Below, one piece after another: positions 15,404 through 55,959 of a DNA stretch of 64,000 nucleotides. The notes under the pieces are model-generated. The model was not told the DNA's origin. It saw nothing but the letters and a program-made list of their open reading frames with translations, and searched no databases. The position numbers and the translations under genes are program-made. Position 1 is the first letter of the stretch. Each line of letters starts with the position of its first letter. Source of the DNA: an uncultured Clostridia bacterium (GTDB taxonomy: Bacteria > Bacillota_I > Bacilli_A > RF39 > UBA660); NCBI GenBank assembly GCA_945871105.1, contig CAMBUO010000003.1, forward strand, positions 9,747-73,746. The letters are read 5' to 3'.

Positions 15404-15513
15404 ATATCCTCTTTTCCTTCTTTATTATATCATTTAAAAATAATAGTAGCAATAAAAGTAAAAAATATTATAAAAATATTTAAAAAAATGTTTATATTAC
15501 CAAGGGAGGATAT

Positions 15514-17028
15514 ATGAATTTAAAAGATACTTTCTTTGATAATATAAATGGTTATAGTCTAGATTTAAATCAAAGAAAAATAATAACAAGTGAAAATAAT
15601 AATATTTTAGTTGTAGCAGGAGCAGGATCTGGTAAAACTTTAACTATAGTTGGAAAAATTAAATATTTAATTGAAAAAAAGAATGTTAATCCAAAAGATA
15701 TATTATGTATTTCTTTTACTAATGAAACAGTAAATAGTTTAAAAAATAAATTACAAGAAGATATCGATGTTTATACTTTTCATAAATTAAGTTTAGAAAT
15801 ATTAAAAGATAATCATGTTTATTTTCGAATAACGGATTCTGATTATTTAGAATATATTGTTAATGAGTACTTTGAAAGTATTATTTATCAAACTAATTTA
15901 ATCAAATATGTTATTAATTATTTTAAATATTATCATGAAGAAGATTTAACTTATGAAATAATTAAAAAAGATTATTTTAAAGAATTTCAAGCTTATAAAA
16001 AACTAATTATTAAATTTATTAATATGATTAAAAGTAATAATCATGATATTAATAATTTTAAAAGATATTTAAAGAGAAATAAATATATTTTTTCTTTAAA
16101 GAAACAATATAAGAATAAATGTTTTTTATTAATTATGTTTTCTCTTTATAAATTATATTTAGAAGAATTAAATAGTAGTTTTGAAATAGATTTTGATTTT
16201 ATGATTATTAAAGCAACGAATAGTATTAAAGATAAAGGAATGAAACGTTATTATAAATATATTATTATTGATGAATTTCAAGATACTTCAATGGTTAGAT
16301 ATAATTTAATTAAAGCTATTAGGGAAGAGTGTGATAGTAAAATATTTTGTGTAGGTGATGATTTTCAATCTATATATCGTTTTTCTGGTTGTACTTTAGA
16401 TTTATTTGTAAACTTTAAAAAGTATTTTAAAAATGCTAAAATTATGTATATTAATAAAACTTATCGTAATTCTTTAGAACTAGTTAAAATTGCTTATAGT
16501 TTTATTATTAAGAATCATTATCAATTAAGTAAGAAAATAATATCTAATAAAAGATTAAAAAATCCTATTAAATTAGTTTATTATACTAAAAGTAATTATG
16601 AATATAAGTTTTTAAGATTGTTAGATAAATTAAATAGGGAAAATAAAAAAGAAATATTAGTCTTAGGTCGTTGTAATCATGATTTAAGTGTTGTTTATAA
16701 AGGAGAAGTTTTAAATAATAGTTTTACATATAAAAATTTAAAAATAAAATATTTAACTGTTCATACTTCAAAAGGATTAGAAAGTGAAGAAGTAATAGTT
16801 TTAAATGTAAGTGATGATTTGTTGGGTTTTCCTAATAAATTAGAAGATGATGAGGTTTTAAAGTTGTTTTTTAGGAATAAAGAAAGATATTTATATGCTG
16901 AAGAAAGAAGACTTTTTTATGTAGCTTTAACAAGAACCAAGAATAATGTTTATTTAATGACAAGAAAGAATTATGAATCTTTATTTGTTTTAGAAATTAA
17001 GAATAAGTGTAGTGTGTTAGATGTTTAA
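15514..17028 (+). CDS. Short UvrD/Rep-family superfamily-1 helicase
   Basis: Helicase motifs are AGAGSGKT (I), DEFQDTS (II), VGDDFQSIYRFSG (III), TYRNS (IV), TVHTSKGLESEEV (V) and RLFYVALTRTK (VI). At 504 aa it is much shorter than PcrA/UvrD. Confidence 0.8.
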   Translation: MNLKDTFFDNINGYSLDLNQRKIITSENNNILVVAGAGSGKTLTIVGKIKYLIEKKNVNPKDILCISFTNETVNSLKNKLQEDIDVYTFHKLSLEILKDNHVYFRITDSDYLEYIVNEYFESIIYQTNLIKYVINYFKYYHEEDLTYEIIKKDYFKEFQAYKKLIIKFINMIKSNNHDINNFKRYLKRNKYIFSLKKQYKNKCFLLIMFSLYKLYLEELNSSFEIDFDFMIIKATNSIKDKGMKRYYKYIIIDEFQDTSMVRYNLIKAIREECDSKIFCVGDDFQSIYRFSGCTLDLFVNFKKYFKNAKIMYINKTYRNSLELVKIAYSFIIKNHYQLSKKIISNKRLKNPIKLVYYTKSNYEYKFLRLLDKLNRENKKEILVLGRCNHDLSVVYKGEVLNNSFTYKNLKIKYLTVHTSKGLESEEVIVLNVSDDLLGFPNKLEDDEVLKLFFRNKERYLYAEERRLFYVALTRTKNNVYLMTRKNYESLFVLEIKNKCSVLDV

Positions 17029-33466: not shown

Positions 33467-34309
33467 TTATTTATTAAATTTTATAATCCGAAAATTACAA
33501 TTTTTACAAAGATTACAAGTTAATTTATTATCCTTAAATCCTTGATTAAGGTTTAAAAATAATTCACTTTTTAAAACATCTTCTAATTCATCTTCAAAAA
33601 TATTACCAAGTTTTAGAATACCTTTACTATCTAAACAACAAGGAACAATATCACCATTTACTAAAATAGCAATATGACTTCTAGTACCAAGACAAGTTCC
33701 TTTATCTAAGATGCTATCTTGAATATTATCTGGCCATTTAAATTCATTATCTTTATCTAAATAAATATTATCTTTAATTTTAATATTTTTTTCCTTTATA
33801 ACTTTATTTATAAAAGATTTATCCAACTTATAATGTGATATTAAGTTATCCACAATTATTGTGGATAACTTATCTAACTTATAATTATCTAATAACCAAA
33901 TACGATAAACAATGGGAATATCTTTTGCTAAGATATCACAAGTATTGAAAACATCGGTAAAGTAGTTTACTAAATTATTTTCACAGTGCAAAGAAACATT
34001 AATTTGTTTAATATTTGTAAATTTTTGTAAAATATTTAACTTACTTTTTAGTAAAGTACCATTAGTAGTTATTTTAACTTTATAATTATATTTTTCAGTT
34101 AATTCAAGTATTTCTAAGAGTTTACTATGTAATAAAGGCTCTCCTTTAATATGTAAATATATAGTATTAGTATATTGTCTAATTTTCTTTAAAATAATGT
34201 CAAATTCTTGTAAAGATAATTCTTTTTTTAAACGGTTATCTTTAGAACAAAAGGAACAGTTTAAATTACAAATATTAGTAATTTCTATATAGATTTTAGA
34301 AAATCTCAT
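33467..34309 (-). CDS. Radical SAM protein with C-terminal Cys-rich (SPASM/twitch-like) region
   Basis: The CNLNCSFC segment is a CxxxCxxC cluster. The C-terminal region has PCCLD ... CNLCKNC. An ATGA overlap links it to the uvrB stop. Confidence 0.8.
33842..33872. repeat. 31-bp perfect palindrome made of two inverted consensus DnaA boxes, inside the radical SAM CDS
   Basis: The sequence is taagTTATCCACAat t atTGTGGATAActta, with 15-bp arms and a 1-nt centre. Degenerate copies ttatccaac (33820 region) and ttatctaac (33871 region) flank it. Confidence 0.85.
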
Positions 34310-36258
34310 AGTTCTCCTTTCATTTCAAATAAAATATCTCTTAATTCCATAGCTCTTTCAAAATCAAGTTCTTTAGCAGCTTGTTTCATTTCTTCTTCGA
34401 TTTTTTGAATAGTATCTATTTTTTCTTTTTTAGTTAATTTAGGAGTTTTTTTATCTTTTGAATCATCTAAATTACTAATTAAATCACGAATTTCTTTAAC
34501 AATTGTTTTTGGAATAATACCATGTTCTTGATTATATTTTTCTTGAATAAGACGACGTCTAGCCGTTTCTTTGATGGCATAGTCCATACTATCAGTTATT
34601 TTATCTCCGTAAAGAATAACATGTCCATGTTCATTTCTAGCACATCTACCAATAGTTTGAATTAAACTACGACTACTTCTTAAAAATCCTTCTTTATCAG
34701 CATCTAAAATAGCAATTAAAGATACTTCCGGAATATCAAGTCCTTCTCTTAAAAGGTTAATACCAACTAATACATCATAGGTACCAAGTCTTAAATCACG
34801 AATAATTTTCATTCTTTCTAAAGTTTTAATTTCTGAATGTAAATAAGCAACTTTAATATCTAATTGTTTTAAATAATTAGTTAATTCTTCAGCCATTCTA
34901 ATGGTTAAAGTCGTGACTAAAACTCTTTCATTTTTATTAATCCGATCGTTTATCTCTCCAACTAAGTCATCAATTTGACCTTCCGTTTTTCTTACTTCAA
35001 TCGTTGGATCAAGTAATCCTGTTGGACGAATAATTTGTTCAATATATTTATTATTAGTTAACTCAAGTTCGTAATCACCAGGAGTGGCTGACACATATAT
35101 AACCTGATTAACTTTTTTTTCAAATTCTTCAAACTTTAAAGGACGATTATCAAGGGCACTTGGTAGGCGAAAGCCAAAGTCAACTAAATTCATCTTCCTA
35201 GCTCTATCACCATTATACATACCTCTTATCTGAGGAACAGTTACATGGCTTTCATCAATAACTAAAAGAAAATCTTTCTTAAAAAAATCAAGTAAGCAAG
35301 TAGGGGTTTCACCTTCTTTTTTTAAAGCTAAATGACGGGAATAATTTTCAATTCCATGACAAAAACCAGTTTCAGCTAACATTTCCATATCATAGTTAGT
35401 TCTTTCTTTAATTCTTTCAGCTTCAAGTGGTTTATTATTATCTAAAAAATATTTAATTCTTTCATTTAATTCTTCTTTAATATTTAAAATAGCTAATTGT
35501 AATTTTTCATCATTAGTTACAAAGTGACTAGCAGGGAAGATAGTAATACTTTTTTTATTTGTTATAATTGCTCCAGTTAAAGTATCGATTTCACTTATTC
35601 TATCTATATCATCTCCAAAAAATTCAATTCTAATTCCATGAGTATGCTCATTAGCAGGAATTATTTCTAAAGTATCTCCACGAACTCTAAAAGTTCCACG
35701 TTTAAAATCAAATTCATTTCTTTCATATAACATATCCACAAGTTTTAACATAATTTTATTACGATCAACTGTATCTCCAACGTTTAAAGTAATCGTTTTA
35801 TTACGATATTCTTCAACTTCTCCAATACCATAAATACAAGAAACACTAGCAACAACAATTACATCATCACGTGATAATAAAGCACTAGTTGCTGAATGAC
35901 GAAGTTCATCAATTTCATCATTTATTTTAGCATCTTTTTCAATATAAGTATCACTTGATGGTACATAAGCTTCAGGTTGATAATAATCATAATAAGAAAC
36001 AAAATATTCAACTCTATTATTAGGAAATAATTCTTTAAGTTCAGAATAAAGTTGACCAGCAAGTGTTTTATTATGAGCAAGTACTAAAGTCTGTTTACCA
36101 GTTTCTTTAATAACATTAGCAATAGTAAAAGTTTTACCAGTTCCAGTTGCACCTAATAATACTTGATGTTTAACACCATCATTAACCCCTTTAATTAATT
36201 TATTAATGGCTTCTGGTTGATCACCACTTGGTTTAAATTTAGAAACTAATTCAAACAT
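34306..36258 (-). CDS. uvrB: Excinuclease ABC subunit B
   Basis: [17 protein letters not shown], Walker [13 protein letters not shown], and a C-terminal UVR motif ([12 protein letters not shown]). The ORF-track GTG start is at 36267. Confidence 0.96.
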
Positions 36259-36421
36259 TTTTATCACTCATCCTTTAATTTTATAAAATATGATATCACA
36301 AACTATTGAAATTATGAATACTTTTAACTAAACAACTACTAATATATATTTTTTAACCTCTAATAATTAATATTATTGTATATTTAATAACATATTATAA
36401 TCACTTAAAAATTTATAATTT

Positions 36422-37225
36422 TTAGTATCTATTAAAAAAATTTCTTAAAAAAAATTCTATTCCATCTTCATTACATGATTTTGTTTTATAAGGAGCAATT
36501 TTTTTAACATCTTCAATAGCATTTTCCATTGCAACTCCATATTTGCTTTTTTCAATCATTTCAATATCATTATAATTATCACCAAAAGATATTGTATTTT
36601 TAATATTTATTTTCTCTAATCTTAAAATATATTTTATTGCTTGAAATTTAGAAACATTTTTTCTTACTATTTCTAACCATCTAATTTCATTATCTTCATT
36701 TTTCATTTCAAATGCATGTAAATTTTTAAATTTATTATTTATTTCATTAATTATTTTATAATTATTTTGATAATTAAATAACTTTATAGTTGAATGAATA
36801 ATATTATTATTTTTTATAAATTCTTTTATATCTTCAATATTTCTAGATAAACCATAATAGTTTAGATCATTTTTTGTATATTTATAGTAGTAATGTTCAT
36901 CAGAAAATTCTATATATTCAAAATTATCATCATACAAATTGATTAATGATTTTATATTTTCTTTACTTAATTTTTTCTTATAGATTATTTTTTTGTTTTT
37001 TATGTCATAAATGATACTTCCTGAATCAGTTATCATATAGTTAATAAAATTTAATTTTGATACAATTTCATAGCACGTATCATATATTCTTCCTGATGCT
37101 ATTACAATAATATGACCATTATCATATAATTTTTTTAAATAATTCTTTGTTCTTGTTGATATTTTTTTATCATAATTTAACAATGTGTTATCTAAATCTA
37201 ATGAAATTACATATCTATTATTCAT
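36422..37225 (-). CDS. Cof-type HAD-IIB phosphatase
   Basis: Motif I is SLDLDNTLL and motif IV is GDNYNDIEM. It overlaps the upstream gene by 8 nt. Confidence 0.85.
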   Translation of the reverse strand: MNNRYVISLDLDNTLLNYDKKISTRTKNYLKKLYDNGHIIVIASGRIYDTCYEIVSKLNFINYMITDSGSIIYDIKNKKIIYKKKLSKENIKSLINLYDDNFEYIEFSDEHYYYKYTKNDLNYYGLSRNIEDIKEFIKNNNIIHSTIKLFNYQNNYKIINEINNKFKNLHAFEMKNEDNEIRWLEIVRKNVSKFQAIKYILRLEKINIKNTISFGDNYNDIEMIEKSKYGVAMENAIEDVKKIAPYKTKSCNEDGIEFFLRNFFNRY

Positions 37226-37898
37226 TATTTATGTCCTTTTTAAAATTGGAAGAATTATGTATAAAAGGAGTTCCTTTATAAAATAGGCAGTATTCTTTAT
37301 TTCCTATAATACGAATTTTTTTATCTGTAATAACTATAACATCTTCTTCTGGTAAAAAAATTAATTTATTCATTTTACTATATTCTTTTAAATAATTTTC
37401 ATTTAATTTCAAGTTACTTTTATTAAAATGACATAAGAGTGAATAATTATTTAGAAAATTCAATCCTTTTGTATCTATATCTATTTTTTTATCTGTTAAT
37501 AAACATCCATCAATATCTTTTCCAAATATTATTGCACCCGCACTTCCACCATAAACAATACCATCATTTAATAAAAAATTTTTAATTTTTTCTAAATTAG
37601 AATTTTCTTGTAATTCTTTCAACAATTTATATGTATTGCCACCTCCTATAAATAATGAACTATAATTATTTAAATTCAATTTTGATAGTTCTATACTGGA
37701 TGTTACCATTTCAAAATTAGTAAAATTAAAATATTCAATCTCTTTTTTAAACCATTTATAACATTCGTTATACTTATTACAATTTAAAGCGAGCGGTATA
37801 TATAGAATTGGCTTGTTTTTATTTATACTTTTAAAAAAATTAATGTAGGCATAAAGGTTTTGTTTGCCAGATCCTCCGCCTGATAGATATAATTTCAT
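37218..37898 (-). CDS. Peptidase E / S51 family (class I glutamine-amidotransferase-like fold) protein
   Basis: IGGGNTYKLLKEL and the GGSAGAIIFG nucleophile elbow. AAGGAG RBS. Confidence 0.7.
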   Translation of the reverse strand: MKLYLSGGGSGKQNLYAYINFFKSINKNKPILYIPLALNCNKYNECYKWFKKEIEYFNFTNFEMVTSSIELSKLNLNNYSSLFIGGGNTYKLLKELQENSNLEKIKNFLLNDGIVYGGSAGAIIFGKDIDGCLLTDKKIDIDTKGLNFLNNYSLLCHFNKSNLKLNENYLKEYSKMNKLIFLPEEDVIVITDKKIRIIGNKEYCLFYKGTPFIHNSSNFKKDINNE

Positions 37899-37909
37899 TT
37901 AATTTCTCC

Positions 37910-38884
37910 TTATCTAATTATTTTTTTTATTCTTTCTTTCGGAACACCACTTGAGGATAATCTTTTTTGCATTTCATTCCAAGGTATATTTATATTTATT
38001 CCAGCCACTTTATATCCTTCATTTACAAGCATATTAATGATATTTGAGTTACAATTTCTTTCATATTCATTTTCTATTATAGAAAAATCAAAAGCATCAG
38101 ATATTTTTTGCCAATCTTGCCAATACAAAATACATTCTTTAAAGTATTTTAAATCTTCAACTTTTAATTTACTTGATGACAATAAATCAGCTAATTTTTT
38201 TGAAAATAGTCTTGCTCGATAACCACTATTTTTTTGTGATGGTTTTACACCACATATAGCAAGCAATGTTATAGCGGAAATAAGTCCTTTTTCAGATGAT
38301 GATAGTTTATCAGAATCACTAAATAAATTAAAATATGATTTATTTCCATTAATACACCATCTAATCCTTTCAATGCCAAAACCCAAATCACACATCGAAT
38401 CAATTTTTTCATTATCTATACGTGTAAAAAAAGTTGTATCTCCTATTTCAATATTATTATAATAATAAAATGTTCTATTACCTGATAAATTTATATTATT
38501 CCATTTATCCTCATAAAAATCACAACATGAAGTTAAATTTCTTTTTTCTAATCCAAGTTGATAGAAAAAATCCAACCAATCTTTTATTAATTTTAAATAT
38601 TCGTTTTCTGATAAATTAAATTTTGCAGTTGTACTATTTATAAATGCTAATGATGTACCTTCAGATAATACATCTAAATATTGTGTTCTAATAACTGGTT
38701 GAGCAATAAATAAATTTTTTTTATCTTCCAATTCATCATTTAAATAACTATTTAAAAGTGGTTGAATTCCTGCACTATAAAAAACTGTATCTTTATTATT
38801 TACAATTGGAAATGGATTAACAATATGATAATCCATTTCCTTAAAATAATTATATATATCTTTTGAAAATAAAATATTTTTCAT
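37910..38884 (-). CDS. Stand-alone alanyl-tRNA-synthetase catalytic-core paralogue (no tRNA-binding, editing or C-Ala domains)
   Basis: By-eye alignment to the E. coli AlaRS N-terminal domain gives FYSAGIQPL vs FTNAGMNQF, QPVIRT vs QRCVRA, DLGFGIERI vs DTGMGLERI, and KNSGYRARL vs ENRGYVLRR. The protein is only 324 aa. Confidence 0.7.
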   Translation of the reverse strand: MKNILFSKDIYNYFKEMDYHIVNPFPIVNNKDTVFYSAGIQPLLNSYLNDELEDKKNLFIAQPVIRTQYLDVLSEGTSLAFINSTTAKFNLSENEYLKLIKDWLDFFYQLGLEKRNLTSCCDFYEDKWNNINLSGNRTFYYYNNIEIGDTTFFTRIDNEKIDSMCDLGFGIERIRWCINGNKSYFNLFSDSDKLSSSEKGLISAITLLAICGVKPSQKNSGYRARLFSKKLADLLSSSKLKVEDLKYFKECILYWQDWQKISDAFDFSIIENEYERNCNSNIINMLVNEGYKVAGININIPWNEMQKRLSSSGVPKERIKKIIR

Positions 38885-38901
38885 AATCCCTCGTCATACA
38901 A

Positions 38902-40155
38902 TTAATAATTATTCACTTTTATTGCTTGATTAATTATTTTTTTAGTTATCTCATAATGCTTATTTAGTTGTTTTATAACAAGATTATTTATTTCCTCTTT
39001 TATTTCATTTGTAATTTCTTGGTTTAATTCTATACTTATATTCCATGGATTTTGAATGCTATCTCCCATTCTTGAAGTACAATAGACAATATTTTCTAAA
39101 TTGTATTTATCATAAATCATTTTGCTAATTTGATCTCCAAGTGCAGTGAATAGTTTTCCTGTATGATATACAGGATTTTTTCCACAAGATGCTTCCATAC
39201 TAAAATGTCTACTAAAGGGTATTACACCACGAGATCGATTTCCTCTTCCAACAGCTCCTTCGTCTCCACTTTCTACAGCACTACCTATTAGCGTCATATA
39301 CATATCATTATTTTTATAATTATCTCGAGTGTTTAAAAATATTTCAATTGGATTATTCGTAAAGTGGTTTAAAATTATGTTATAAATATCTTTTTTTATT
39401 AAATTTAATTTGTTTATATAGTCATCTATATTTTTAACATATAAAGAGATTAATGGTACACATGCAGTAATTTCGATTTTTTTATCTTTTCGCATTCCCA
39501 TTATTTTAATATCATTTCCAGTCCATGGATATTTGTTTTTATATTCCTTAGAATTTAATGTCATTTCTATTTCTAAAACTGTTTTTTCTAATTCACTCAT
39601 TGGATAGTAACTAACCGTTGTAGAAGTATCATTGCATCGAAAGTGATTATTATGTCTACTAAAATCTGTTTTATTAACTACTTCAAAAAATTTTTTTCTT
39701 TCATTTTTAGTTGTATCTTTATCATTATAAACAACTCCAGGTCCTTCATTATGATGAGTGTTATCAACTATTTCTAAATATTTTTCGATATTAAGTAAAG
39801 GAAACAATTCTTTAAAATAATCTTTTATTGTTTTTGTTATTATTGACATGTAATCAATTTTTTCATTTTTAAAACGATCAGTAAATCTTCCATTAACTAA
39901 AACTTTTATTGGTGCAATCATTTCACCACCACCAAATTTTACTTTGGAACCTCCTCCTATGATAGATAATTTATCTATCATATGTCTTAAAATAACGCCA
40001 TAATGTTTCAAGCAATATTGTGAATATGTTGCAGAAATTTTTTCTGATAATGTGTCACAAATATTATCAGGATGTCCTTTTCCTTTTGTTTCAACTACTT
40101 CAAATAAAGTATCATCAATATTAATTTTTTTGTTTACATAAATAAAAGTCTCCAT
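38902..40155 (-). CDS. Archaeal-type methionine adenosyltransferase (SAM synthetase, PF01941-like)
   Basis: It resembles the Methanocaldococcus MAT along its full length by eye: ETKGKGHPDNICD, KFGGGEMIAPIKVLVNGR, CNDTS, GNDIKIMGMRKDKKIEIT, GDEGAVGRGNRSRG and SMEASCGKNPVYHTGK. GGAGG RBS. Confidence 0.8.
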   Translation of the reverse strand: METFIYVNKKINIDDTLFEVVETKGKGHPDNICDTLSEKISATYSQYCLKHYGVILRHMIDKLSIIGGGSKVKFGGGEMIAPIKVLVNGRFTDRFKNEKIDYMSIITKTIKDYFKELFPLLNIEKYLEIVDNTHHNEGPGVVYNDKDTTKNERKKFFEVVNKTDFSRHNNHFRCNDTSTTVSYYPMSELEKTVLEIEMTLNSKEYKNKYPWTGNDIKIMGMRKDKKIEITACVPLISLYVKNIDDYINKLNLIKKDIYNIILNHFTNNPIEIFLNTRDNYKNNDMYMTLIGSAVESGDEGAVGRGNRSRGVIPFSRHFSMEASCGKNPVYHTGKLFTALGDQISKMIYDKYNLENIVYCTSRMGDSIQNPWNISIELNQEITNEIKEEINNLVIKQLNKHYEITKKIINQAIKVNNY

Positions 40156-40350
40156 ATTTTTTCCTCCAAATATACTATTATTATATAATATGTATTAAAA
40201 AAAGTCTATGGCAATCGCTTAAAGATAGTGTAGAAAAGTTTCAGAAAATAAAAAAATGAAATAAGTGTTCTAATCCAAAAAGTACTTAACTCAATAATAC
40301 TTAAACTTAATTTAAATTGACACAACTTTATTCTTTTAAAATATACAATA

Positions 40351-40376
40351 AAAAAAACGCTATTTTGCGTCTTTTT
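40351..40376 (-). terminator. Weak hairpin terminator after the four-gene orphan operon
   Basis: On the minus strand the sequence is aaaagacgc aaaata gcgtttttt. It has a short GC core with one G-U pair, and the U-tract is shared with the stem. Confidence 0.35.
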
Positions 40377-40486
40377 AGCATGTAATTAAAAAGTAGAAAA
40401 ATTTTTATTTTGGATATAAAATAATTTTTTTCAATTTTAATTCATAATTTTTAGTAAAATTTATTCTATTTTACTGATAATTTAAA

Positions 40487-40723
40487 TTATATCTCATCTA
40501 AATTATCTATAATTAACTTAACTTCATCTAAATTTTTAAAAAATAAATCAGTTTTATTAATCAATAAATCTTTTATATCTAACTTTTTACTCTTTAAATA
40601 ATTAATAATTTCTAAACATTCATCTTGATTACAATTAAGATTAAATGCTTCTGAACCTTTAATATTTTCTTTAACTATTTTTAAATCTTCTTCATCTAAA
40701 TAATCTTTTAAAAAATCTAACAT
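40487..40723 (-). CDS. Hypothetical 78-aa helical protein (single helical-repeat unit resembling those in the upstream 579-aa protein)
   Basis: It starts 9 nt after the upstream stop. The segment ECLEIINYLKSKKLDIKDLLINKTDLFFKNLDEVKLIIDNL echoes repeats in the neighbouring gene. Confidence 0.5.
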   Translation of the reverse strand: MLDFLKDYLDEEDLKIVKENIKGSEAFNLNCNQDECLEIINYLKSKKLDIKDLLINKTDLFFKNLDEVKLIIDNLDEI

Positions 40724-40732
40724 TTAATCACC

Positions 40733-42472
40733 TTACATTCTTTTAATATTTTGAAATATATTTTCAACAACAGTTTCTATTTTTTCATATTCTTCTTTAG
40801 TTAAAAAACTATTTTTTGTAATTGCATACATAAGCATATCTTTACTTTCATTCATACCATTATAAATTAAAGTAGTCATATATCTTAAAACTTTATATCT
40901 TGAAATTAATACACCATCTATATTATAAGCTCTTACTTGTTTTGAACTATATTCTTTATCTAAAATTTTGATTGAATTTAGTTGATTGATAAAATCAAAA
41001 GCAATTGTATTATTATCACTTTTTTTAACTATTTCATCGAATATTTGTTCTAATTCCGAAGGTTCTTTATGATAAACATTAAGTTCTTGATAATTATCTT
41101 TATTAACATCTGAATATGTTTTATCATCATAAGTTATAGTACTAGGTAATTGAATCCCTTTTTTAGTATCTTTATAAAGAGAAGAAATATCAATACCATT
41201 TTCTCTTGCTTTAAACAATTTATAAAACATTAAAGAATTCTTTTTTATACAAGCCCTTGACATATTACTAGTAACATAATCAAAAGCATTAAATTCGATA
41301 AAAATATCCAAGATATCTAATTGATTATGATTAGCAAAGGCACTTAAAGTATCACGATAATATTTAGGAGTAATACCATATAAATCAAAGTTTTTTAAAC
41401 TCTTTTTAATTGAATCATGAGGTTTTTCAAAATAAAAGGCACTTTTTTGATAAGCTTTTTCAATATCAACGCCAATCGAACTAAATAATTCTAAATTCTT
41501 TTTAAAATCTTCATAACCACCTATATTTTCATCATCTTTATTATTCGTTGTTTTTTTATCATCAGTATTTCTCATTAACCATTTTCTTTTTCGAGGAATA
41601 AATTTAGCTGGTCTTTTAAAGAAATCATCAAGAAATTCAGAAATATTTAGATTATATTTTTGATAAGTTTTAATGACACTTTCAACTATTTCAGGTTTAG
41701 AATAGATAAATATTCTACTAATAGCTAATTGATAGTTATTAAATATTTCGGTAGAAAATAAATTATATTGTTTTAAAGTTAAAATAATTTGTTCAATATT
41801 TTCTAAATTACCATAAGTTTCTAATTCGGACTTAGCCGTACTTTTAATATCTTGATAATTAATTCCATATTTTTGAAATAATTTTTCTAAATCTTCTTTA
41901 GTAATATTAGTTTTATTAAGAACTTCAATTTCCTCATCTTTATTAGTTATTAATTTCTGTAAAGTTTTTAAAGCTAGATATTTCATTATTTCGATGCCTT
42001 CTCTTAAATGATTATCTTCAATTATAATATTTTTTAATAATTCCATATCTTTATCATCTAAATTATAAGTTTCTACTTTTTTAATTAATATTTCTAAATT
42101 TTTAATTTGTTTTTCTATAACTAAACTTTCTTCTTTATTTAAATTATTTTGTATTTCTTGGTTATAATTTATTTCTTTATCAAAAAGACTATTAAGTTTT
42201 TCTAAATCACTTTCTTGTAAACTATATCCTTGTTTAAGAACAATTTGATAAAAATTTAATAATTCTAAAGATAAATTATCAAGATTTTTAAAAGTATTTT
42301 TGATATTTAAATCTTTAAGTTTTAATATATCAGCTTTAATATCTAATAGAGTATTTATAATATCTTGTTGTTTATCATATTGTTTTTGATAATTTTTTTG
42401 AATATTTTCTTGTTCTTTTTTTAAATTTTTAATATTTTTAGTAAGTATATCCTTAATCATTTTATCGTACAT
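40733..42472 (-). CDS. Hypothetical 579-aa protein: N-terminal coiled coil + helical repeats (mTERF-like pattern)
   Basis: The GGAGG RBS overlaps the stop of the upstream gene. Recurrent units include LFQKYGINYQDIK, LKQYNLFSTEIF, YQKYNLNISEFL, LFSSIGVDIEKAY and LKNFDLYGITPKYY. No catalytic motif was recognised. Confidence 0.6.
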   Translation of the reverse strand: MYDKMIKDILTKNIKNLKKEQENIQKNYQKQYDKQQDIINTLLDIKADILKLKDLNIKNTFKNLDNLSLELLNFYQIVLKQGYSLQESDLEKLNSLFDKEINYNQEIQNNLNKEESLVIEKQIKNLEILIKKVETYNLDDKDMELLKNIIIEDNHLREGIEIMKYLALKTLQKLITNKDEEIEVLNKTNITKEDLEKLFQKYGINYQDIKSTAKSELETYGNLENIEQIILTLKQYNLFSTEIFNNYQLAISRIFIYSKPEIVESVIKTYQKYNLNISEFLDDFFKRPAKFIPRKRKWLMRNTDDKKTTNNKDDENIGGYEDFKKNLELFSSIGVDIEKAYQKSAFYFEKPHDSIKKSLKNFDLYGITPKYYRDTLSAFANHNQLDILDIFIEFNAFDYVTSNMSRACIKKNSLMFYKLFKARENGIDISSLYKDTKKGIQLPSTITYDDKTYSDVNKDNYQELNVYHKEPSELEQIFDEIVKKSDNNTIAFDFINQLNSIKILDKEYSSKQVRAYNIDGVLISRYKVLRYMTTLIYNGMNESKDMLMYAITKNSFLTKEEYEKIETVVENIFQNIKRM

Positions 42473-42486
42473 AATTATTACCTCCA

Positions 42487-44193
42487 TTAAATATCTTTTT
42501 CTTTTTCTTTAGTTAGTTGATAACATTTTTCCATACTTTCATTGATAATATCTTGTAATACTTTTTTATCAGTTTTTGGATCTTGAAATAAAGCTTTTAT
42601 TTTTTGAATATATGATTTAGTTTGATATAATCCAGCATTTAAATTATCATATTCATTATGGGATGCATCAGTCCAAGTAACAGAGAAAAATAATACTATC
42701 CGACCATTTCCATTATTAACAAAGTGTTGATTATGATATAACTCAGCTATTTTTTGCATATTTTCTTCACAAGTAGGAATAATTAAATAGCCAGTTCTTC
42801 CATAATTAGTATTACGAATTCTATATGGTGAAAGTTCTTTATCATATAATTTGGTTTTTATATTTTTATAAAGTTTATCTGTATTAGAATGTATTCTTAT
42901 GTTATCAGCATAACCTTGTTTAGTAAATAAATTAATAGCTTCTCGTAACTCATTTTGTTTAATTAATTGTTTATCAGTATCATCAGAGATTAAATCTTGA
43001 TCAATATAAAAATCTTCTTGCTCTAATTCTTTACTAAATAATATTATGTTGGTGCTGTTAGCAATAAAATCTTCAAAATCTTGGTTATTAGGTTCTAATA
43101 TTTCTATTTCTTGATTTCTAGTTTCATTATAAATTAAAACTTTCTTTTGATATTCTTCAAGTTTATTTTGAAGTTCACTTATTAAATCATCAATTATTTC
43201 AGCATCAGCTTCAAATTCTAAATAATATTCTAAATCTTTTAAACAAGGAATAATAATACTTAAAGTTTTAATTTCTTCCATATTTAAATGAGGATTAGCT
43301 TGTTCAATACTTAAAAAATCACCGTTCATTAAATAATGTTTAATCCCATCATTAAAACTATTATAAATATTTAAAATAGTTTGATGTTCTCTTAAAATTG
43401 TTATAGCTTTATCTTGTAAAGTTTTTAAAATCTCTAATTTTTTTGAATAATTATCTTTTTCTTCTTGTTCTTTAGCATTTCTTGATTCTATCAATATTTC
43501 TAAAGTTTCATCTTCTTCTGTGCTTATACTATCTAATTCTTTTATTACAATTTGTTCATTACTTTCTGTTTGACTTATTAAATCATGAATATTTTCTCTT
43601 GTAATAGGACTTTCTTCTTCAACTTTATGATTTTTAATACTATGATAACCTTTTTGACTAATCAAAGTAACTAATTCTAGTTTTTCAACTAAAGTAGCAT
43701 CTAAAAGTTCAATTAAATCCATGAATTCTGTTATTTCAGTTAAATTTAGTGAAAATTCATTTTCTAAATTATCTAAATAATTTTTTAATTTAGTATATTT
43801 AGTAATAATATCTTCTAATTCTTTAATTTGCTTATTTAATAATTCTTGTTTTTCCTTTTGCTTTGTTTTAATTTTTAATTTAAAATTATCTAATTTATCT
43901 AAAATAACTTTTTTAATACCAGTTTCTTCTATATTAGGATTACTTAAAAACGGAGCTAATTCTTTAATTGAATTAAGAAAACTTAAATCAGTTTCTACTT
44001 CTTTTTCTGCTTCTATTAATAACAAATTATCTTTATAATTATCAATATTTATATTTAATAAATCTGTATCTAAAGAATTTAAAAAATTATCAAGTTCATT
44101 TACTTTTAATAACACATTTTTTAATTTTAATAAATTAACTTTTTCATCAAGTATTTTTTTAACTTGATTAATATAATTACTTAAATTTATCAT
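42487..44193 (-). CDS. Hypothetical 568-aa protein: long coiled coil, acidic middle, distinct C-terminal alpha/beta domain
   Basis: The start ATG (MINLSNY) follows AAAGGTAAG and overlaps the upstream gene by 17 nt. The C-terminal domain contains PYRIRNTNYGRTGYLIIP...GRIVLFFSV. There is no Walker A. Confidence 0.6.
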   Translation of the reverse strand: MINLSNYINQVKKILDEKVNLLKLKNVLLKVNELDNFLNSLDTDLLNINIDNYKDNLLLIEAEKEVETDLSFLNSIKELAPFLSNPNIEETGIKKVILDKLDNFKLKIKTKQKEKQELLNKQIKELEDIITKYTKLKNYLDNLENEFSLNLTEITEFMDLIELLDATLVEKLELVTLISQKGYHSIKNHKVEEESPITRENIHDLISQTESNEQIVIKELDSISTEEDETLEILIESRNAKEQEEKDNYSKKLEILKTLQDKAITILREHQTILNIYNSFNDGIKHYLMNGDFLSIEQANPHLNMEEIKTLSIIIPCLKDLEYYLEFEADAEIIDDLISELQNKLEEYQKKVLIYNETRNQEIEILEPNNQDFEDFIANSTNIILFSKELEQEDFYIDQDLISDDTDKQLIKQNELREAINLFTKQGYADNIRIHSNTDKLYKNIKTKLYDKELSPYRIRNTNYGRTGYLIIPTCEENMQKIAELYHNQHFVNNGNGRIVLFFSVTWTDASHNEYDNLNAGLYQTKSYIQKIKALFQDPKTDKKVLQDIINESMEKCYQLTKEKEKDI

Positions 44194-44731
44194 TTTTCTT
44201 ACCTTTCTTTTTAATACCAATATTAATATTTTTATTAATAGGTATATAGTCTATTTTTTCATTATATGTTAGGGATAAATTACGATATTTTTCAATAAAG
44301 AAAAGATAAGCAGTATATAAAAAAGTTATATTCATATCAAGAATTAATTGAATTGTTATAATAATTTTTTTTACATATAAAATAGATTCAGGGTTATTAA
44401 GAAAATTTTTATCATTAATGAGATTATATATTTGTATTATGTAATTATAAGCTAATGCTTTTTTAGAACTAGAACAATTTTGATATTTTTCTTTTATTTT
44501 TATTATTTCTAATTTTATACGATCAAATTCTGTTAATACTTGATTATTAGTTGTATATATTTTATCTTCTAAAGCATTTATTTTCTTTTGATTATTGATT
44601 ATATCTCCTTTAGTATAGTCATATAATTTTTTATAGTTTTTATAAAGCTTTATTAAATAGTTTACTTCACTAGAAGGGATATTAGTTTTCGTTATATATT
44701 TAAGAAAATCTTTATTATTAAATTCATCCAT
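44177..44731 (-). CDS. Hypothetical 184-aa protein (first gene of the orphan operon)
   Basis: GGAGGA RBS. A coiled-coil N-terminal half is followed by one hydrophobic segment (ITFLYTAYLFFI) and a basic tail. Confidence 0.55.
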   Translation of the reverse strand: MDEFNNKDFLKYITKTNIPSSEVNYLIKLYKNYKKLYDYTKGDIINNQKKINALEDKIYTTNNQVLTEFDRIKLEIIKIKEKYQNCSSSKKALAYNYIIQIYNLINDKNFLNNPESILYVKKIIITIQLILDMNITFLYTAYLFFIEKYRNLSLTYNEKIDYIPINKNINIGIKKKGKKNDKFK

Positions 44732-44750
44732 AGCGTCCTCCTATATTAAA

Positions 44751-44759
44751 AATTATAAC
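44751..44759 (-). promoter_or_regulatory. Extended -10 element (TGtTATAAT) upstream of the orphan operon
   Basis: On the minus strand the sequence is tatatGtTATAAT, about 20 nt upstream of the GGAGGA RBS. No good -35 element was found. Confidence 0.35.
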
Positions 44760-44832
44760 ATATAAGTGAAAAAATTAATATACAAAGATGAAAAATTATG
44801 ATATATTTATTTTGATTGTAAGGAGTGAATTT

Positions 44833-45414
44833 ATGAAAAAAGTTATTAAAAATAATGCAAGTATTATGTCTTTAATATTGGCTATTATATTTTTAATTAT
44901 TGGGGCAGTTATGTTTACAAGACCAGAGTTTATTGTTTTAGTATTTTCTTATGTTATGGGAGGAATTATTATTCTTTTTGGGGTTTATAATTGTATTAAA
45001 AATTATGTCGAAGTTAAAAAAGATAATAATACTTCATCTAAAGATATGATAATTGGAATTACATCTATTGTAATAGGTTTAATTTTTATTTTCTTAGCTA
45101 ATGTTATAGAAGCTGTGATAAGACTTGTAATAGGGGGATATATATTATTTATTGGTCTTAATCGTTTTATAAATGCTTTATATATTAAAAAGAAAGATAG
45201 TCGTTTTATTGCTTTATTAATTATTTCTTTAATATTAATGGGTGGCGGATTATATACTATTTTAGAAGCTAATTTAGCTTTTCAAACCATGGGAATTGTT
45301 ATTATGATTTATGCTATTTTAGAAATAATTGGTTATATATTTAATATATCTATTATTAAAAAAAATGATGTTGAAGTAAAAGATGCTATTTTAATAGAAG
45401 AAAAGAAAGATTAA
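44833..45414 (+). CDS. DUF308/HdeD-like membrane protein
   Basis: Six hydrophobic helices in repeated pairs. AGGAG RBS; the ORF-track start is 44788. Confidence 0.6.
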   Translation: MKKVIKNNASIMSLILAIIFLIIGAVMFTRPEFIVLVFSYVMGGIIILFGVYNCIKNYVEVKKDNNTSSKDMIIGITSIVIGLIFIFLANVIEAVIRLVIGGYILFIGLNRFINALYIKKKDSRFIALLIISLILMGGGLYTILEANLAFQTMGIVIMIYAILEIIGYIFNISIIKKNDVEVKDAILIEEKKD

Positions 45415-45480
45415 AATTTCATCAAAAAAACATATTTTTTTACTATTTTTGTGATATACTTATTAAGTAGGAGAAAGAGA

Positions 45481-46410
45481 ATGAAAAAGGAGTTTAAGAC
45501 CTTAAATGAACAGATAGAGATTTTACAAAACAAGGGGTTAGTGATAGAAAATCTAGAATATGCAAAAGAAGTTTTATTTAGAGAAAACTATTTCTTTTTA
45601 AATGGTTATCGCCATTTATTTATGAAAAGTAATGTTGATAGAACTTATATTGATGGTACTACTTTTGAAGAATTATATAGTTTATTTTTATTTGATCGAA
45701 CATTTCGAAATATAATATTTAAAAATATTTTAGTGATTGAAAATAATATTAAATCAATTATTAGTTATCAATTGTCTTTAAAATATGGTTATAAAGAAAA
45801 AGATTATTTAACACCTAAGAATTTTACTAGTAATAAAGAAAAATCAAAACAAGTAAATGATATTTTAAAGAAAATGAAAAGACAAATAAGTGTTAATGCA
45901 ACTCAACATTCAGCGACGATGCATTATGTTACTAATTATGGTTTTATTCCTTTATGGGTATTAGTTAAAGTATTATCATTTGGTATAGTAGGAGAGTTAT
46001 ATTCTATTTTAAAAAAAGAAGATCAGATGGATATAGCTGATGTTTATCAATTAGATGTTGATGTTCTTTGTAATTATTTAACTATTTTATCAAATTATCG
46101 TAATTTATGTGCCCATGAAGATATTGTTTTTGAAAATAAAACGCAAAGAAAGATAAATGATACGAAATATCATAAACAGTTACAAATACCAATTATGGAT
46201 GATGATTATATTTATGGAAAAAATGATTTATTTGCTTTAATAATTATTATGAAACAAATGTTATCAAAAGAAGAATTTAGTAATTTGATCGAAGAGATAA
46301 AACATAATTTAACTAATTTAGATATGAATTTAAAACATATTAAAATTGATAAAGTATTAGATAGAATGGGATTTCCATTAAATTTTAGTGAAATTAAAGA
46401 TTTAGATTGA
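45481..46410 (+). CDS. Abi-like protein (AbiD/AbiF, Abi_2 family; HEPN RX4H motif)
   Basis: The N-terminal region LNEQIEILQNKGLVIEN...AKEVLFRENYFFLNGY is typical of Abi_2. YRNLCAHED contains R-x4-H. AGGAGAAAGAG RBS. Confidence 0.75.
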   Translation: MKKEFKTLNEQIEILQNKGLVIENLEYAKEVLFRENYFFLNGYRHLFMKSNVDRTYIDGTTFEELYSLFLFDRTFRNIIFKNILVIENNIKSIISYQLSLKYGYKEKDYLTPKNFTSNKEKSKQVNDILKKMKRQISVNATQHSATMHYVTNYGFIPLWVLVKVLSFGIVGELYSILKKEDQMDIADVYQLDVDVLCNYLTILSNYRNLCAHEDIVFENKTQRKINDTKYHKQLQIPIMDDDYIYGKNDLFALIIIMKQMLSKEEFSNLIEEIKHNLTNLDMNLKHIKIDKVLDRMGFPLNFSEIKDLD

Positions 46411-46420
46411 GGTGATTTAG

Positions 46421-47545
46421 GTGAAAGAAAAAAATAAAATTAATTTAGTTATTTATTTATTTGTAGCTTTTGTTCTTGGAGGATTAGTAATGTACTATAT
46501 TGCAATTAATACTAATGTTTATCAAGAAAATAAAAGTGGAAATACGACAAATAATAGTTGTCGTGCTTGTAGTGGTACCATTATTGTTAATGATGGTTCT
46601 TTATCAGCAAGTGTTGAAAAGGTTTATGATGCTGTTATGATGATTCAAAATTATCAAAATAATGCTATTGCATCAACGGGAAGTGGATTTGTTTATAAAA
46701 CTGATGATAAATATGGTTATGTTTTAACAAATCATCATGTAATATCCGGAGCTACAAAGATTGTTTTAATTAGAAGTGATGATAAAGAAATAGAAGGTAC
46801 AGTTTTAGGAAGTGATGAATACTTAGATTTAGCAGTTGTTCGTATTAATAAAAGTGATGTCATTGATACAGCTAAAATTGGAACTAGTGAAAATTCTAAA
46901 TTAGGTGATACGGTATTTACAATTGGTTCACCATTAGGATATGAATATCGAGGAACAGTTACAGATGGTATTTTATCAGGAAAAGATCGTTTAGTTACCG
47001 TTAGTTTATCAGGTAGTAATATTAATGACTGGGTTATGAAAGTATTACAAACAAATGCAGCTGTTAATCCAGGAAACAGTGGTGGGCCACTTGTAAATGC
47101 AACTGGGGAAGTAATCGGAGTTATCTCTTTAAAATTAGTTCAAACAGAAGTAGAAAATATGGGATTTGCTATTCCAATTGAATATGCTATGAGTCATATT
47201 GATTCTTTAGAAAGTGGTAAAGCTATTGTTCGTCCTATGCTTGGAATTAGTATGTTAAATGTTACTGATACATATGCTTTATATCGAAGCGGTATCATGA
47301 TTAAAGACGATATTAAAGCTGGAGTTGTGGTTGTTGAAATAGCTAAAGATAGTGGAGCAAGTAAATCAGATTTACAAAAAGGTGATGTTGTTACTAAAAT
47401 TAATAACGAAAAAGTTGATAACATGGCTTATTTAAGATATGAATTATATAAATATAATGTTGGAGATAAAATAACAATTACTTACTTAAGAGATGGTAAA
47501 GAAAAAACAACAACTATTCAATTAACTGAATATAAAGAAGATTAA
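46421..47545 (+). CDS. htrA: HtrA/DegP-family serine protease with PDZ domain
   Basis: The GTG start lies 10 nt after the Abi stop. The catalytic triad context is TNHHV, DLAV and GNSGGPL. A C-terminal PDZ domain is present. Confidence 0.9.
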   Translation: MKEKNKINLVIYLFVAFVLGGLVMYYIAINTNVYQENKSGNTTNNSCRACSGTIIVNDGSLSASVEKVYDAVMMIQNYQNNAIASTGSGFVYKTDDKYGYVLTNHHVISGATKIVLIRSDDKEIEGTVLGSDEYLDLAVVRINKSDVIDTAKIGTSENSKLGDTVFTIGSPLGYEYRGTVTDGILSGKDRLVTVSLSGSNINDWVMKVLQTNAAVNPGNSGGPLVNATGEVIGVISLKLVQTEVENMGFAIPIEYAMSHIDSLESGKAIVRPMLGISMLNVTDTYALYRSGIMIKDDIKAGVVVVEIAKDSGASKSDLQKGDVVTKINNEKVDNMAYLRYELYKYNVGDKITITYLRDGKEKTTTIQLTEYKED

Positions 47546-48248: not shown

Positions 48249-49232
48249 TTATTTGCTTGGACTAGCAAATAATGTATTATTATAATAACGAATAGTAGCA
48301 TCACGATAAGAAGTAGAAGAAATAGGAATATCATGTTCTTTTAAGAAACTAACAATCTTTTCTTTATCTTCTAAAGACATTTCGATTAAATTACCATCAA
48401 TATTGATAATTAATTTATCAGTAAATATATTTTGAATTGCTTTATCTGAATAATTTTTAATACTTTTAAAATTAGATACGTAAATACGTAATAATTTAGC
48501 ATCTTTAGGATCTAAAATTTGATCTCCTGCTTGGGTAATTTCATCAAAACTATAATTAGTTAAAGTAAGAAAATCAATTATACTAAAATTATCACCTAAT
48601 TCTTTAATTTTATTTAAAATAGTATAAACATCATCTTTAATAGTTTCTTTTTGCATTTCTTCTTTTAATTTAAGAGTTTCTATTAATTCTTGATAAAAAA
48701 TAGGTTCTATTGATTTAATCTTTGTCATGTAATTTTTAAAAGATGAGATTTTAATACCAGTTTGAAAGCAAAACCTTTTTAAACTATAATCAGAATCCAT
48801 GAAAGATTGCATAACTTGATTATAATAAGAAGTACTAGTTGTATAAATATTAACTTTCTTTTGATCATTTAAATATGCTTGATAAATATTTAATTTTCTT
48901 TGTAATTCATTTTTTAATACTTCATTAAAGAGCATATCAGGTCGATATAATAAAATATATTCTTGTAAATTATTTTTTAATTCTTTAAATGGATAATCAA
49001 TATTATTTAAAAAATCGATAATTAAATCTGAATCATGTAATAAATCTAATTTATCAAAGATAATAGCATAAGCAGAACGTGATTTATGCTCATTAATATA
49101 TTTTAATATAAGTATTAAAAAAGTTTCTAATTCAATATCTAAACTTTTAGCATAATCATTTAAAATATTTCTATTACCATAGGATAGTATATATGCTTGA
49201 TAAGCATTTTCTAAATTAATAGCATTTTTCAT
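48249..49232 (-). CDS. Hypothetical protein
   Basis: 327-aa ORF co-directional with dut and the LysM gene. No recognisable motif. Confidence 0.5.
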   Translation of the reverse strand: MKNAINLENAYQAYILSYGNRNILNDYAKSLDIELETFLILILKYINEHKSRSAYAIIFDKLDLLHDSDLIIDFLNNIDYPFKELKNNLQEYILLYRPDMLFNEVLKNELQRKLNIYQAYLNDQKKVNIYTTSTSYYNQVMQSFMDSDYSLKRFCFQTGIKISSFKNYMTKIKSIEPIFYQELIETLKLKEEMQKETIKDDVYTILNKIKELGDNFSIIDFLTLTNYSFDEITQAGDQILDPKDAKLLRIYVSNFKSIKNYSDKAIQNIFTDKLIINIDGNLIEMSLEDKEKIVSFLKEHDIPISSTSYRDATIRYYNNTLFASPSK

Positions 49233-54512: not shown

Positions 54513-54632
54513 AAAAGAAAAAAACTTAGGCATATCCTAAGTTAGATATCCTTATCCATCAGGGTTTAGCACCTAATTTAATAGGTTGCTGGATTTCCTA
54601 GGGCCTGTCCCTCCATCTCTCTTTATAAGGTT
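54513..54632 (-). promoter_or_regulatory. SAM-I (S-box) riboswitch with intrinsic terminator in the metK leader
   Basis: The minus-strand aptamer is CTTATAAAGAGAGATGGAGGGACAGGCCCTAGGAAATCCAGCAACCTATTAAATTAGGTGCTAAACCCTGATGGATAAGG (54550..54630). The terminator is aacttagg/cctaagtt followed by a U-run (54513..54543). Confidence 0.9.
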
Positions 54633-55875: not shown

Positions 55876-55959
55876 CCTTGTGTGGCGGAATTGGTAGACG
55901 CGCACGACTCAAAATCGTGTATCTTTGATGTGAGGGTTCGATTCCCTCCACAAGGACCA
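55876..55959 (+). tRNA. tRNA-Leu (anticodon CAA), CCA encoded
   Basis: Acceptor arms CCTTGTG/CACAAGG, D-arm GGCGGAATTGGTAGACGC, anticodon loop CUCAAAA, a long variable arm, T-arm GGGTTCGATTCCC, and a 3' ACCA. Confidence 0.93.

Follow-up and report, generated by a model that had tools for sequence, protein, structure and literature searches.

A conserved, fast-diverging four-gene module of undescribed helical proteins in AT-rich gut and rumen Bacillota

What are four adjacent genes for, if they encode some 1,400 amino acids (aa) of protein that no family model recognises? This question is raised by a stretch of 64,000 nucleotides (nt), hereafter the window, from an uncultured Clostridia bacterium (GTDB lineage Bacillota_I; Bacilli_A; RF39; UBA660; GenBank assembly GCA_945871105.1, contig CAMBUO010000003.1, positions 9,747 to 73,746 of the forward strand), in which positions 40487–44731 carry four minus-strand genes, here called A, B, C and D. 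An earlier note, made from the sequence alone, had singled out this operon beside a putative abortive-infection (Abi) gene and proposed a novel multi-protein system serving either defence or a structural role. We find that A–D form one conserved, cytoplasmic, four-gene module, whose protein families are undescribed. Its architecture combines paralogous N-terminal domains (N-domains) with an mTERF-like solenoid encoded by two genes and a possible RelE-like end, lacks a nucleoside triphosphatase (NTPase) and is without a described counterpart. At a probability of roughly one in three, our preferred reading is a chromosomally fixed complex of all four proteins, resembling toxin–antitoxin (TA) or abortive-infection systems, that would act on nucleic acid in the cytoplasm.

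A gene set conserved at core loci

That the four genes constitute a single unit, as previously proposed, is borne out by their open reading frames (ORFs), their translational coupling and their recurrence in other genomes. They are co-directional and are served by strong ribosome-binding sites. At a GC content of ~23%, about one in eleven random codons (~9%) is a stop, and all four ORFs are intact in every relative examined; the 568 and 579 codons of B and C therefore represent real genes rather than chance openings. Start sites were assigned from homologues: for B, a TTG at 44220 also figures in the ORF list, yet every homologue begins with MI(N/D)L at the ATG, and C homologues all begin with MY, leaving a longer start in the list unused.

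In line with the earlier statements that the proteins lack diagnostic motifs and that annotation by homology would fail, searches with A, B, C and D against Pfam, NCBIfam, PADLOC and PHROGs returned nothing above noise, and scanning 81 diverse C members singly against Pfam revealed no recurring family. Sequence and profile searches of the PDB (C with 9- and 118-sequence profiles, B, and a profile of the B C-terminus) gave only coiled-coil or designed-protein noise. Hidden Markov models (HMMs) of A–D detected no further paralogues among all ORFs of the window, and literature searches on bacterial mTERF-like proteins and on defence gave nothing relevant and no paper describing a module of this kind.

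The family behind this silence is large. A word-indexed homologue search identified 21 close relatives of C and five of B (an alignment of 118 C sequences gave the same 21), while the C profile, run with HMMER against 1.84 billion cluster representatives, matched 328 proteins at E ≤ 1e-3 and 214 at E ≤ 1e-10, i.e. a family of at least 328 clusters at 50% identity. Nearly all of the matches listed were full-length (560–750 aa), and C relatives are named only ‘hypothetical protein’.

Nor is the quartet confined to the window, as had been left to check. On sampled contigs with C homologues, the order A-B-C-D is shared by ~13 distinct modules, two of which lack A and thus present B-C-D. Orthologues of A (145–206 aa) precede B in 11 of 13 modules, and D orthologues follow C in all 13; protein lengths across lineages are 490–700 aa for B, 573–746 aa for C and 77–100 aa for D. 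In the roughly one dozen distant lineages that carry the full or the three-gene set, C is 22–48% identical to that of the window, and every module locus has a GC content of 20–27%. Those genomes that are named are metagenome-assembled genomes (MAGs) of rumen and human-gut origin that bear the label ‘uncultured Erysipelotrichaceae’ or ‘uncultured Bacilli’. A search for related loci with an alignment of close relatives recovered three MAGs among genome contigs and nothing in the JGI metagenomes.

Gene contexts fall into several types. In the window lineage (seven genomes), the module lies between HtrA-Abi_2-DUF308 and uvrB; in L012/L013 and L023, between prfB-yvjA-like genes and uvrA-lgt-trxB-whiA; in L022, next to prfB-yvjA-like genes, with uvrA not downstream; and in L020, between mraY and ftsW. 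It is preceded by rpoBC-ISL3 in L021 and by rluB in L014, and followed by asnB in both L021 and L024. The module thus looks vertically inherited in core positions. The earlier note had named a syntenic core position, together with a match to known structural or cell-cycle proteins, as an outcome that would speak against defence: the core position was found, but the match was not. One locus (L013 1822–10540, from the same organism as L012) carries tandem copies, B542-C573-D99 without A, then A163-B-C746-D100. These are 40–58% identical to each other, and the second B looks split owing to scaffold Ns only. An apparent break of B into 62-aa and 411-aa pieces in L025 was likewise traced to a 10-N scaffold gap, and a pseudogene was rejected. 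A YitT-type gene, considered as a replacement of A in L013 and L022, proved to be the ordinary yvjA-like gene after prfB, as in B. subtilis.

The same distribution bears on whether the operon might be the remnant of a prophage or mobile element, e.g. tail or tape-measure-like helical proteins retained by chance. An ISL3 transposase does adjoin the module at one locus, and Foldseek searches of BFVD matched C to minor tail and tape-measure proteins, yet these matches were of low probability (<0.45, with TM-scores <0.2) and were rejected. Searches of 50,697 phage records and PLSDB plasmids (both by tblastn of C) and of IMG/VR yielded no relatives, no integrase or other phage genes accompany the module in any context, and its frames are intact and its cores constrained over very deep divergence. 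A remnant is accordingly very improbable.

Domain architecture of the four proteins

The clearest structural picture was obtained for C, for which AlphaFold2, supplied with the 118-sequence alignment, returned a model with a mean predicted local distance difference test (pLDDT) score of 93.5 and a predicted TM-score (pTM) of 0.79 (a model from nine sequences, with a pLDDT of 58, was discarded). The modelled protein is helical and well folded, comprising a solenoid as well as conserved basic or polar patches. Its compact N-domain comprises predicted helices at residues 2–47, 66–80, 87–110, 113–135, 140–152 and 156–178. The short-helix solenoid that follows is broken by a predicted disordered, Lys-rich loop (297–313), contains weak internal repeats (196–269 vs. 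327–394) and carries the conserved residues G318, N326, Y365, D389, E393, Y399 and S405; residues 181–470 as a whole are mildly basic (isoelectric point, pI, 7.85). In the C-terminal domain, Y516, S524, K527 and R530 are invariant or near-invariant among 81–118 members, with S524-x-x-K527-x-x-R530 placed on the helix behind a hairpin. Family-conserved residues cluster in the second half of the solenoid and in this hairpin-helix. The earlier description of coiled-coil or helical-repeat proteins hence held for the helical character, but the C model shows a compact domain and a short-helix solenoid instead of long heptad rods. Compared with the PDB using Foldseek, the C model had its best matches in human MTERF1–DNA structures (3mvb_O and 3n6s_A; probability 0.87, E 0.5–0.7, target TM-score 0.43–0.44), which are not significant.

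Acidic, helical D is the best-conserved member of the quartet. Its family usually measures 95–100 aa, so that the window encodes a short form. D resembles two or three mTERF-type repeats, with a sequence rhythm (FLxxxGIxxxxIxxI) that is also seen in the repeats of C. Pfam mTERF (PF02536) was the top match of D from L012 (E 0.049) and of the D consensus (E 0.016), and the second match of D from L014 (E 0.095); an hhalign comparison of D with C residues 321–356 was weak (E 5e-4, probability 31%). As the D matches stay below threshold and no C member matches Pfam mTERF, ‘mTERF-like’ designates the closest fold only and not family membership.

B is related to C at its N-terminus. The two align by hhalign from the first residue (B 2–207 vs. 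C 1–197; probability 92.8%, E 4e-7, collinear), and the C HMM matches residues 1–210 of many B proteins; by sequence comparison, B and C are paralogous in their N-domains and differ downstream. The acidic central segment noticed before was recovered in B at residues 211–440 (pI 4.3), a region that aligns poorly between lineages and is rich in insertions and deletions. Behind it lies a basic, putatively alpha/beta-type domain with the motifs YRIR (457), RTGY (466) and HNEY (512), in which R466 is invariant and Y469 and Y515 are near-invariant across ten divergent B proteins. Pfam Gp49 (PF05973) was the best match for the C-termini of B from L012, L013 and L014 (18–21 bits, E 4e-4 to 2e-2), spanning positions 9–78 of the 90-position profile; these proteins lack an insert of ~25 aa that window-type B proteins carry between two putative strands of the domain. 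A PDB search with a sequence profile of the B C-terminus returned nothing. In a hand alignment, YRIR, RTGY and HNEY of window B fall on YKIK, RLVY and Y87 of RelE. Together, these sequence likenesses make an RNase of RelE type possible at the end of B: a lead, not a demonstration.

A shared helical N-domain in front of differing C-termini (~200 aa in both B and C), small helical partner genes alongside, no signal peptide or transmembrane segment in A–D, and a B protein that may end in an RNase-type domain are also features to be expected of a secreted or contact-dependent antagonism module like the type VII LXG effectors, to which the fast divergence and allele exchange described below would add. 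B and C would then be effectors, A and D chaperones or immunity proteins, and the RelE-like domain the delivered toxin. However, no LXG, WXG100, DUF3130/DUF3958 or EssC-type match was found in A, B, D, 81 C members or about a dozen neighbourhoods, even with the Pfam check taken to E-values of 1–5. Moreover, the C-terminal domains are conserved rather than polymorphic, there is no variable toxin/immunity pair, and C is too large and too conserved for an immunity protein, leaving an LXG-like role improbable.

A is unrelated to B, C and D by hhalign. The hydrophobic helix previously reported in this protein is indeed present in the window (Kyte–Doolittle mean 1.63), but it is marginal and no conserved transmembrane segment: the mean is 0.5–1.5 in homologues, and the segment holds conserved D, N and Q residues. 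A membrane anchor was therefore rejected on grounds of marginal and non-conserved hydrophobicity; judged by its sequence, the helix is probably a buried amphipathic one and A a soluble protein.

Divergence of the module relative to its flanks

When the window was compared with six relatives of its lineage, identity was 89–90% for UvrB, 83–88% for HtrA and 83–90% for Abi_2, as against 43–53% for A, 34–41% for B, 42–48% for C and 45–62% for D. Between loci L001 and L005, UvrB, HtrA, Abi_2 and DUF308 are 98–99.5% identical, while A, B and C share 69–70% and D 96% of residues. At the nucleotide level, identity is 96–99% in the flanks, 67–87% over a segment that begins ~85 nt into A and extends through C, and 97% in D. 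A second lineage shows the same pattern (L012 vs. L023: UvrA 91%, A–C 38–46%). The module is thus several-fold faster than its neighbours and bears a recombination-like footprint.

Ratios of non-synonymous to synonymous substitution rates (dN/dS; Nei–Gojobori) were 0.43–1.07 for A–C vs. 0.02–0.26 for five flanking genes. Within B, the N-domain is the fastest part (1.2–2.8 in local dN/dS windows between L001 and L005) and the C-terminal domain the slowest (0.16–0.23). Synonymous change was examined only at codons with an identical amino acid in L001 and L005, which avoids the problem of multiple hits. Such codons differ in 15.9% of cases in the module vs. 6.8% in the flanks (Fisher p 9e-13), and their 4-fold sites in 31% vs. 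12% (p 5e-7). From this excess it follows that coalescence of the A-B-C segment is older than that of its surroundings, which suggests imported or long-lived alleles or, alternatively, a local hotspot of mutation. Rapid divergence and signs of allele exchange fit a conflict system.

A possible nucleic-acid-directed conflict complex

Under our preferred reading of a TA- or abortive-infection-like complex, B and C would pair via their paralogous ~200-aa N-terminal helical domains. C, extended or capped by D, may form an mTERF-like superhelical platform with the conserved basic hairpin-helix, and this platform might bind DNA or RNA. The C-terminal domain of B would cut or block RNA, possibly on the ribosome, restrained by C and D until the fast-evolving surfaces of A and the N-domains encounter a trigger, e.g. 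a product of a phage or mobile element. Such a division of labour could account for C-terminal ‘business ends’ that are retained while the surfaces of A and the N-domains race, and addiction to antidote subunits could keep the module fixed at one locus despite its racing sequence. In its most specific form, an immune or addiction module without an NTPase that is fixed in core genomes of ultra-AT-rich gut Bacillota, in which the C and D solenoid reads nucleic acid and controls a RelE-like RNase of B while A and the N-domains sense invaders, the proposal is rather unlikely.

Almost as likely as the conflict complex, if tentative in its own right, is a lineage-specific housekeeping scaffold (nucleoid-, RNA-, ribosome- or division-associated) built from substitution-tolerant helices that drift fast. 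The module occupies a fixed syntenic prfB…uvrB/uvrA position in at least four deep lineages and sits inside the dcw cluster (mraY/ftsW) in another. It is always present, usually in single copy, and was never found on the phage or plasmid records searched. Its functional cores (C 200–579, B 441–568) are constrained, with dN/dS of 0.14–0.45, and mTERF-like folds serve gene expression by binding nucleic acid. What a simple relaxation of constraint would not lead one to expect is that A–C differ by 30% between flanks that are 98–99.5% identical, with sharp boundaries. The 2.3–2.6-fold synonymous excess at conserved codons, the local dN/dS >1 in the B N-domain and the tandem duplication in one genome also tell against a scaffold, as does the detection of the family only in lineages of 20–27% GC, with no detectable counterpart in model Bacillota.

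A number of observations nevertheless weigh against a conflict complex. Several concern tempo: between the window and L025, which share 92% nucleotide identity over 40550–44600, dN/dS amounts to 0.15, 0.26 and 0.39 for A, B and C, respectively. Given these short-range values of 0.15–0.39, dN/dS near 1 at depth is partly saturation and selection is purifying overall, as a scaffold would have it. Equally fast, moreover, is a 327-aa gene of no family match at 48249–49232 (minus strand), whose product shares 41–47% identity with the L001 and L019 orthologues; in these genomes, non-enzymatic proteins may therefore evolve fast in general. Others concern genomic setting: presence/absence polymorphism was not seen (the module is at the same locus in seven of seven window-lineage genomes), the phage, plasmid and IMG/VR searches described above yielded no relative, and no recurrent co-location with defence genes emerged across the module contexts, the neighbours in other lineages (prfB-yvjA, uvrA, mraY-ftsW, rpoBC, rluB) being housekeeping genes. 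Hence, of the system inferred earlier, defensive or structural, the conserved gene set stood but its defence-island context did not. In PADLOC-DB v2, A, C and D had no match and B only one at noise level (PDC-M02B, E 0.036).

The remaining points concern the two candidate domains. All Gp49 scores of B lie below the cut-off of 23.9, window B and six other insert-bearing B proteins have no Gp49 match, the hhalign comparison of window-type with insert-less B C-termini was not significant, and NCBIfam gave nothing on B C-termini. No helix-turn-helix (HTH), ribbon-helix-helix (RHH) or AbrB match occurs among A, C and D, and the operon includes no gene for a small DNA-binding antitoxin. The mTERF scores of D (12–15 bits) are below the cut-off of 23.1, and neither the 81 C members nor their consensus match Pfam mTERF.

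Local neighbourhood and operon signals

The pair of DUF308 and HEPN-Abi genes reported beside the operon was confirmed as DUF308 and Abi_2/AbiD (Pfam 3e-42; PADLOC AbiD 9e-60), as were the archaeal-type MAT and S51 peptidase genes on the other side. DUF308 (44788–45414), Abi_2 (45451–46410, plus strand) and HtrA (46421–47545) form a block whose synteny is kept in all six relatives; its Abi_2 shares 83–90% identity with the window protein and has the tempo of a core gene (dN/dS ~0.1). As the synteny of DUF308-Abi_2-HtrA is lineage-specific and the neighbours differ in other lineages, adjacency to Abi is no evidence for a defence island, and the suggestion that the Abi neighbour points to defence was not upheld: the AbiD neighbour is confined to the window lineage.

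Between D and uvrB, L009 has nothing, L001 carries RhuM, L005 a fragment of RhuM and the window a four-gene MAT block; from this variable content we conclude that the site is an insertion hotspot, a hint of local plasticity that counts in favour of a conflict complex. The MAT block (36422–40155, minus strand), at this site only in the window, encodes an S-adenosylmethionine synthetase of archaeal type (PF01941), an unknown protein of 324 aa whose faint match is class II tRNA-synthetase-like, an S51 peptidase and a HAD/Cof-like protein, called from a DLDNTL motif alone. Downstream of the radical-SAM gene in L005, a ParE/YafQ-RelB TA pair is inserted (15413–15995) that is not in the near-identical L001. 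The fast 48249–49232 gene adjoins a gene for a LysM protein that is 71–82% identical, and its equivalent in L001 consists of two tandem unknown genes of ~340 aa.

In prfB-type lineages, the module stands directly upstream of uvrA, with no uvrB between (L012 5236–8046; L023 11475–14285), while the window lineage has a radical-SAM/SPASM gene instead of uvrA after its uvrB (window 33467–36267). The usual uvrB-uvrA pair is therefore split in both layouts, with the module at the break. In L020 (5335–12273), from a spore-former-like lineage, it lies between mraY and ftsW/spoVE, the usual place of murD in the division and cell-wall cluster.

Transcription signals of the operon are modest (Table 1). 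Both the extended –10 element upstream of A and the weak hairpin downstream of D that had been noted before were located. The former, TGTTATAAT, is a consensus match only, with no good –35 for the promoter of A, and in a generic promoter scan promoter-like sites were no more frequent than in shuffled sequence. The hairpin (40376–40351) has ten pairs, three of them G–C, and is the sole terminator-like site within 40000–45000. The GGAGG in front of C is present as described earlier, but it directly follows the TAA of B and does not overlap this stop. An Rfam search of the window identified no RNA element in or beside the operon; its sole matches were a SAM riboswitch (54549–54631, minus strand, 64 bits) and a tRNA gene (55876–55956, plus strand).

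Table 1. Positions of the genes, domains and signals of the four-gene module in the window (residue numbers refer to the window proteins)
Feature	Position	Strand	Remarks
Extended –10 promoter element TGTTATAAT upstream of gene A	44752..44760	minus	Read from sequence
AGGAGG ribosome-binding site of gene A	44737..44742	minus	5 nt before ATG; read from sequence
Gene A	44731->44177	minus	ORF of 184 aa
A, basic (pI 9.5), all-helical protein with Lys-rich tail	44177..44731	minus	Conserved motif IQxILxMNITFYY
Gene B	44193->42487	minus	ORF of 568 aa; ATG overlaps the end of gene A by 17 nt
B, N-terminal helical domain, residues 1–207	43573..44193	minus	Homology to the C N-domain
B, acidic, poorly conserved middle, residues 211–440	42874..43563	minus	pI 4.3
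B, basic C-terminal, putatively alpha/beta-type domain, residues 441–568; candidate RelE/ParE-like (Gp49/HigB-like)	42490..42873	minus	pI 8.75
Gene C	42472->40733	minus	ORF of 579 aa; GGAGG 8 nt upstream of start
C, compact N-terminal helical domain, residues 1–178	41939..42472	minus	AlphaFold2 model, pLDDT mostly 90–98
C, short-helix solenoid (mTERF-like), residues 192–432	41177..41899	minus	AlphaFold2 model
C, C-terminal domain, residues 473–578	40739..41056	minus	Beta-hairpin 515–524, then helix (model)
Gene D	40723->40487	minus	ORF of 78 aa; 9 nt after gene C
Weak intrinsic-terminator-like hairpin with T-run	40351..40376	minus	110 nt after gene D; terminator scan

Significance and comparison with known systems

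In hundreds of gut and rumen lineages of Bacillota, ~1,400 aa of protein per genome are now without annotation, although the module has a confidently foldable, unmatched architecture. Its non-synonymous excess, sharp boundaries and allele exchange constitute a signature that is usual at loci of conflict or balancing selection. If A–D are a conflict system, they would represent a design for defence or addiction that is invisible to HMMs of the PADLOC and DefenseFinder type, and would imply that such systems need not be island-borne but can occupy syntenic places in the core genome. If they serve housekeeping, they would be an unknown nucleic-acid-handling machine in organisms not yet cultured. 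A module of a C and D solenoid with a RelE-like domain, if true, would give bacterial mTERF-like folds their first function. Direct tests are feasible under either reading, given the alignment of the family, its domain boundaries and its conserved residues.

Among known proteins, the RelE/ParE toxins (Gp49/HigB-like, PF05973) are the best match for the last ~110 aa of distant B homologues. Window B has the same putative strand pattern with a pair of basic residues (YRIR), an invariant Arg followed three positions later by a Tyr (RTGY), which may compare with R61-x-x-Y64 of RelE, and a near-invariant C-terminal Tyr, which may compare with RelE Y87, all within a small, basic, conserved domain. 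Whereas RelE is a free toxin of 90 aa, however, the B domain sits behind ~440 aa of helical and acidic sequence, scores under the cut-off, contains in the window an insert of ~25 aa and has no HTH or RHH antitoxin adjacent to it.

For C, the likeness lies with mTERF proteins (PF02536; MTERF1–DNA 3N6S and 3MVB), its short-helix solenoid in the middle having these as sole, weak structural neighbours in the PDB (Foldseek E ~0.5, TM-score 0.44, values that add to the points against a conflict complex). Known mTERFs, in contrast, belong to the organelles of eukaryotes; beyond its solenoid, C has an N-terminal helical domain, a Lys-rich disordered loop and a C-terminal hairpin-helix domain, and the repeat protein is here split over genes C and D.

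Type VIIb LXG modules (effector, Lap1/Lap2, immunity) share with A–D a ~200-aa helical N-domain, small helical neighbours and fast divergence, but the module lacks any LXG, WXG100 or Lap match and has no secretion genes nearby, and its C-termini are conserved instead of swapped. With TA and abortive-infection systems, e.g. AbiD/Abi_2, it would have in common a possible RNase-type effector together with partners in one operon, and fast sequences. Unrelated to Abi_2 or to PADLOC models, the module is much larger than these systems and has no NTPase; and while known systems are patchy and mobile, it is vertical and stands at core loci.

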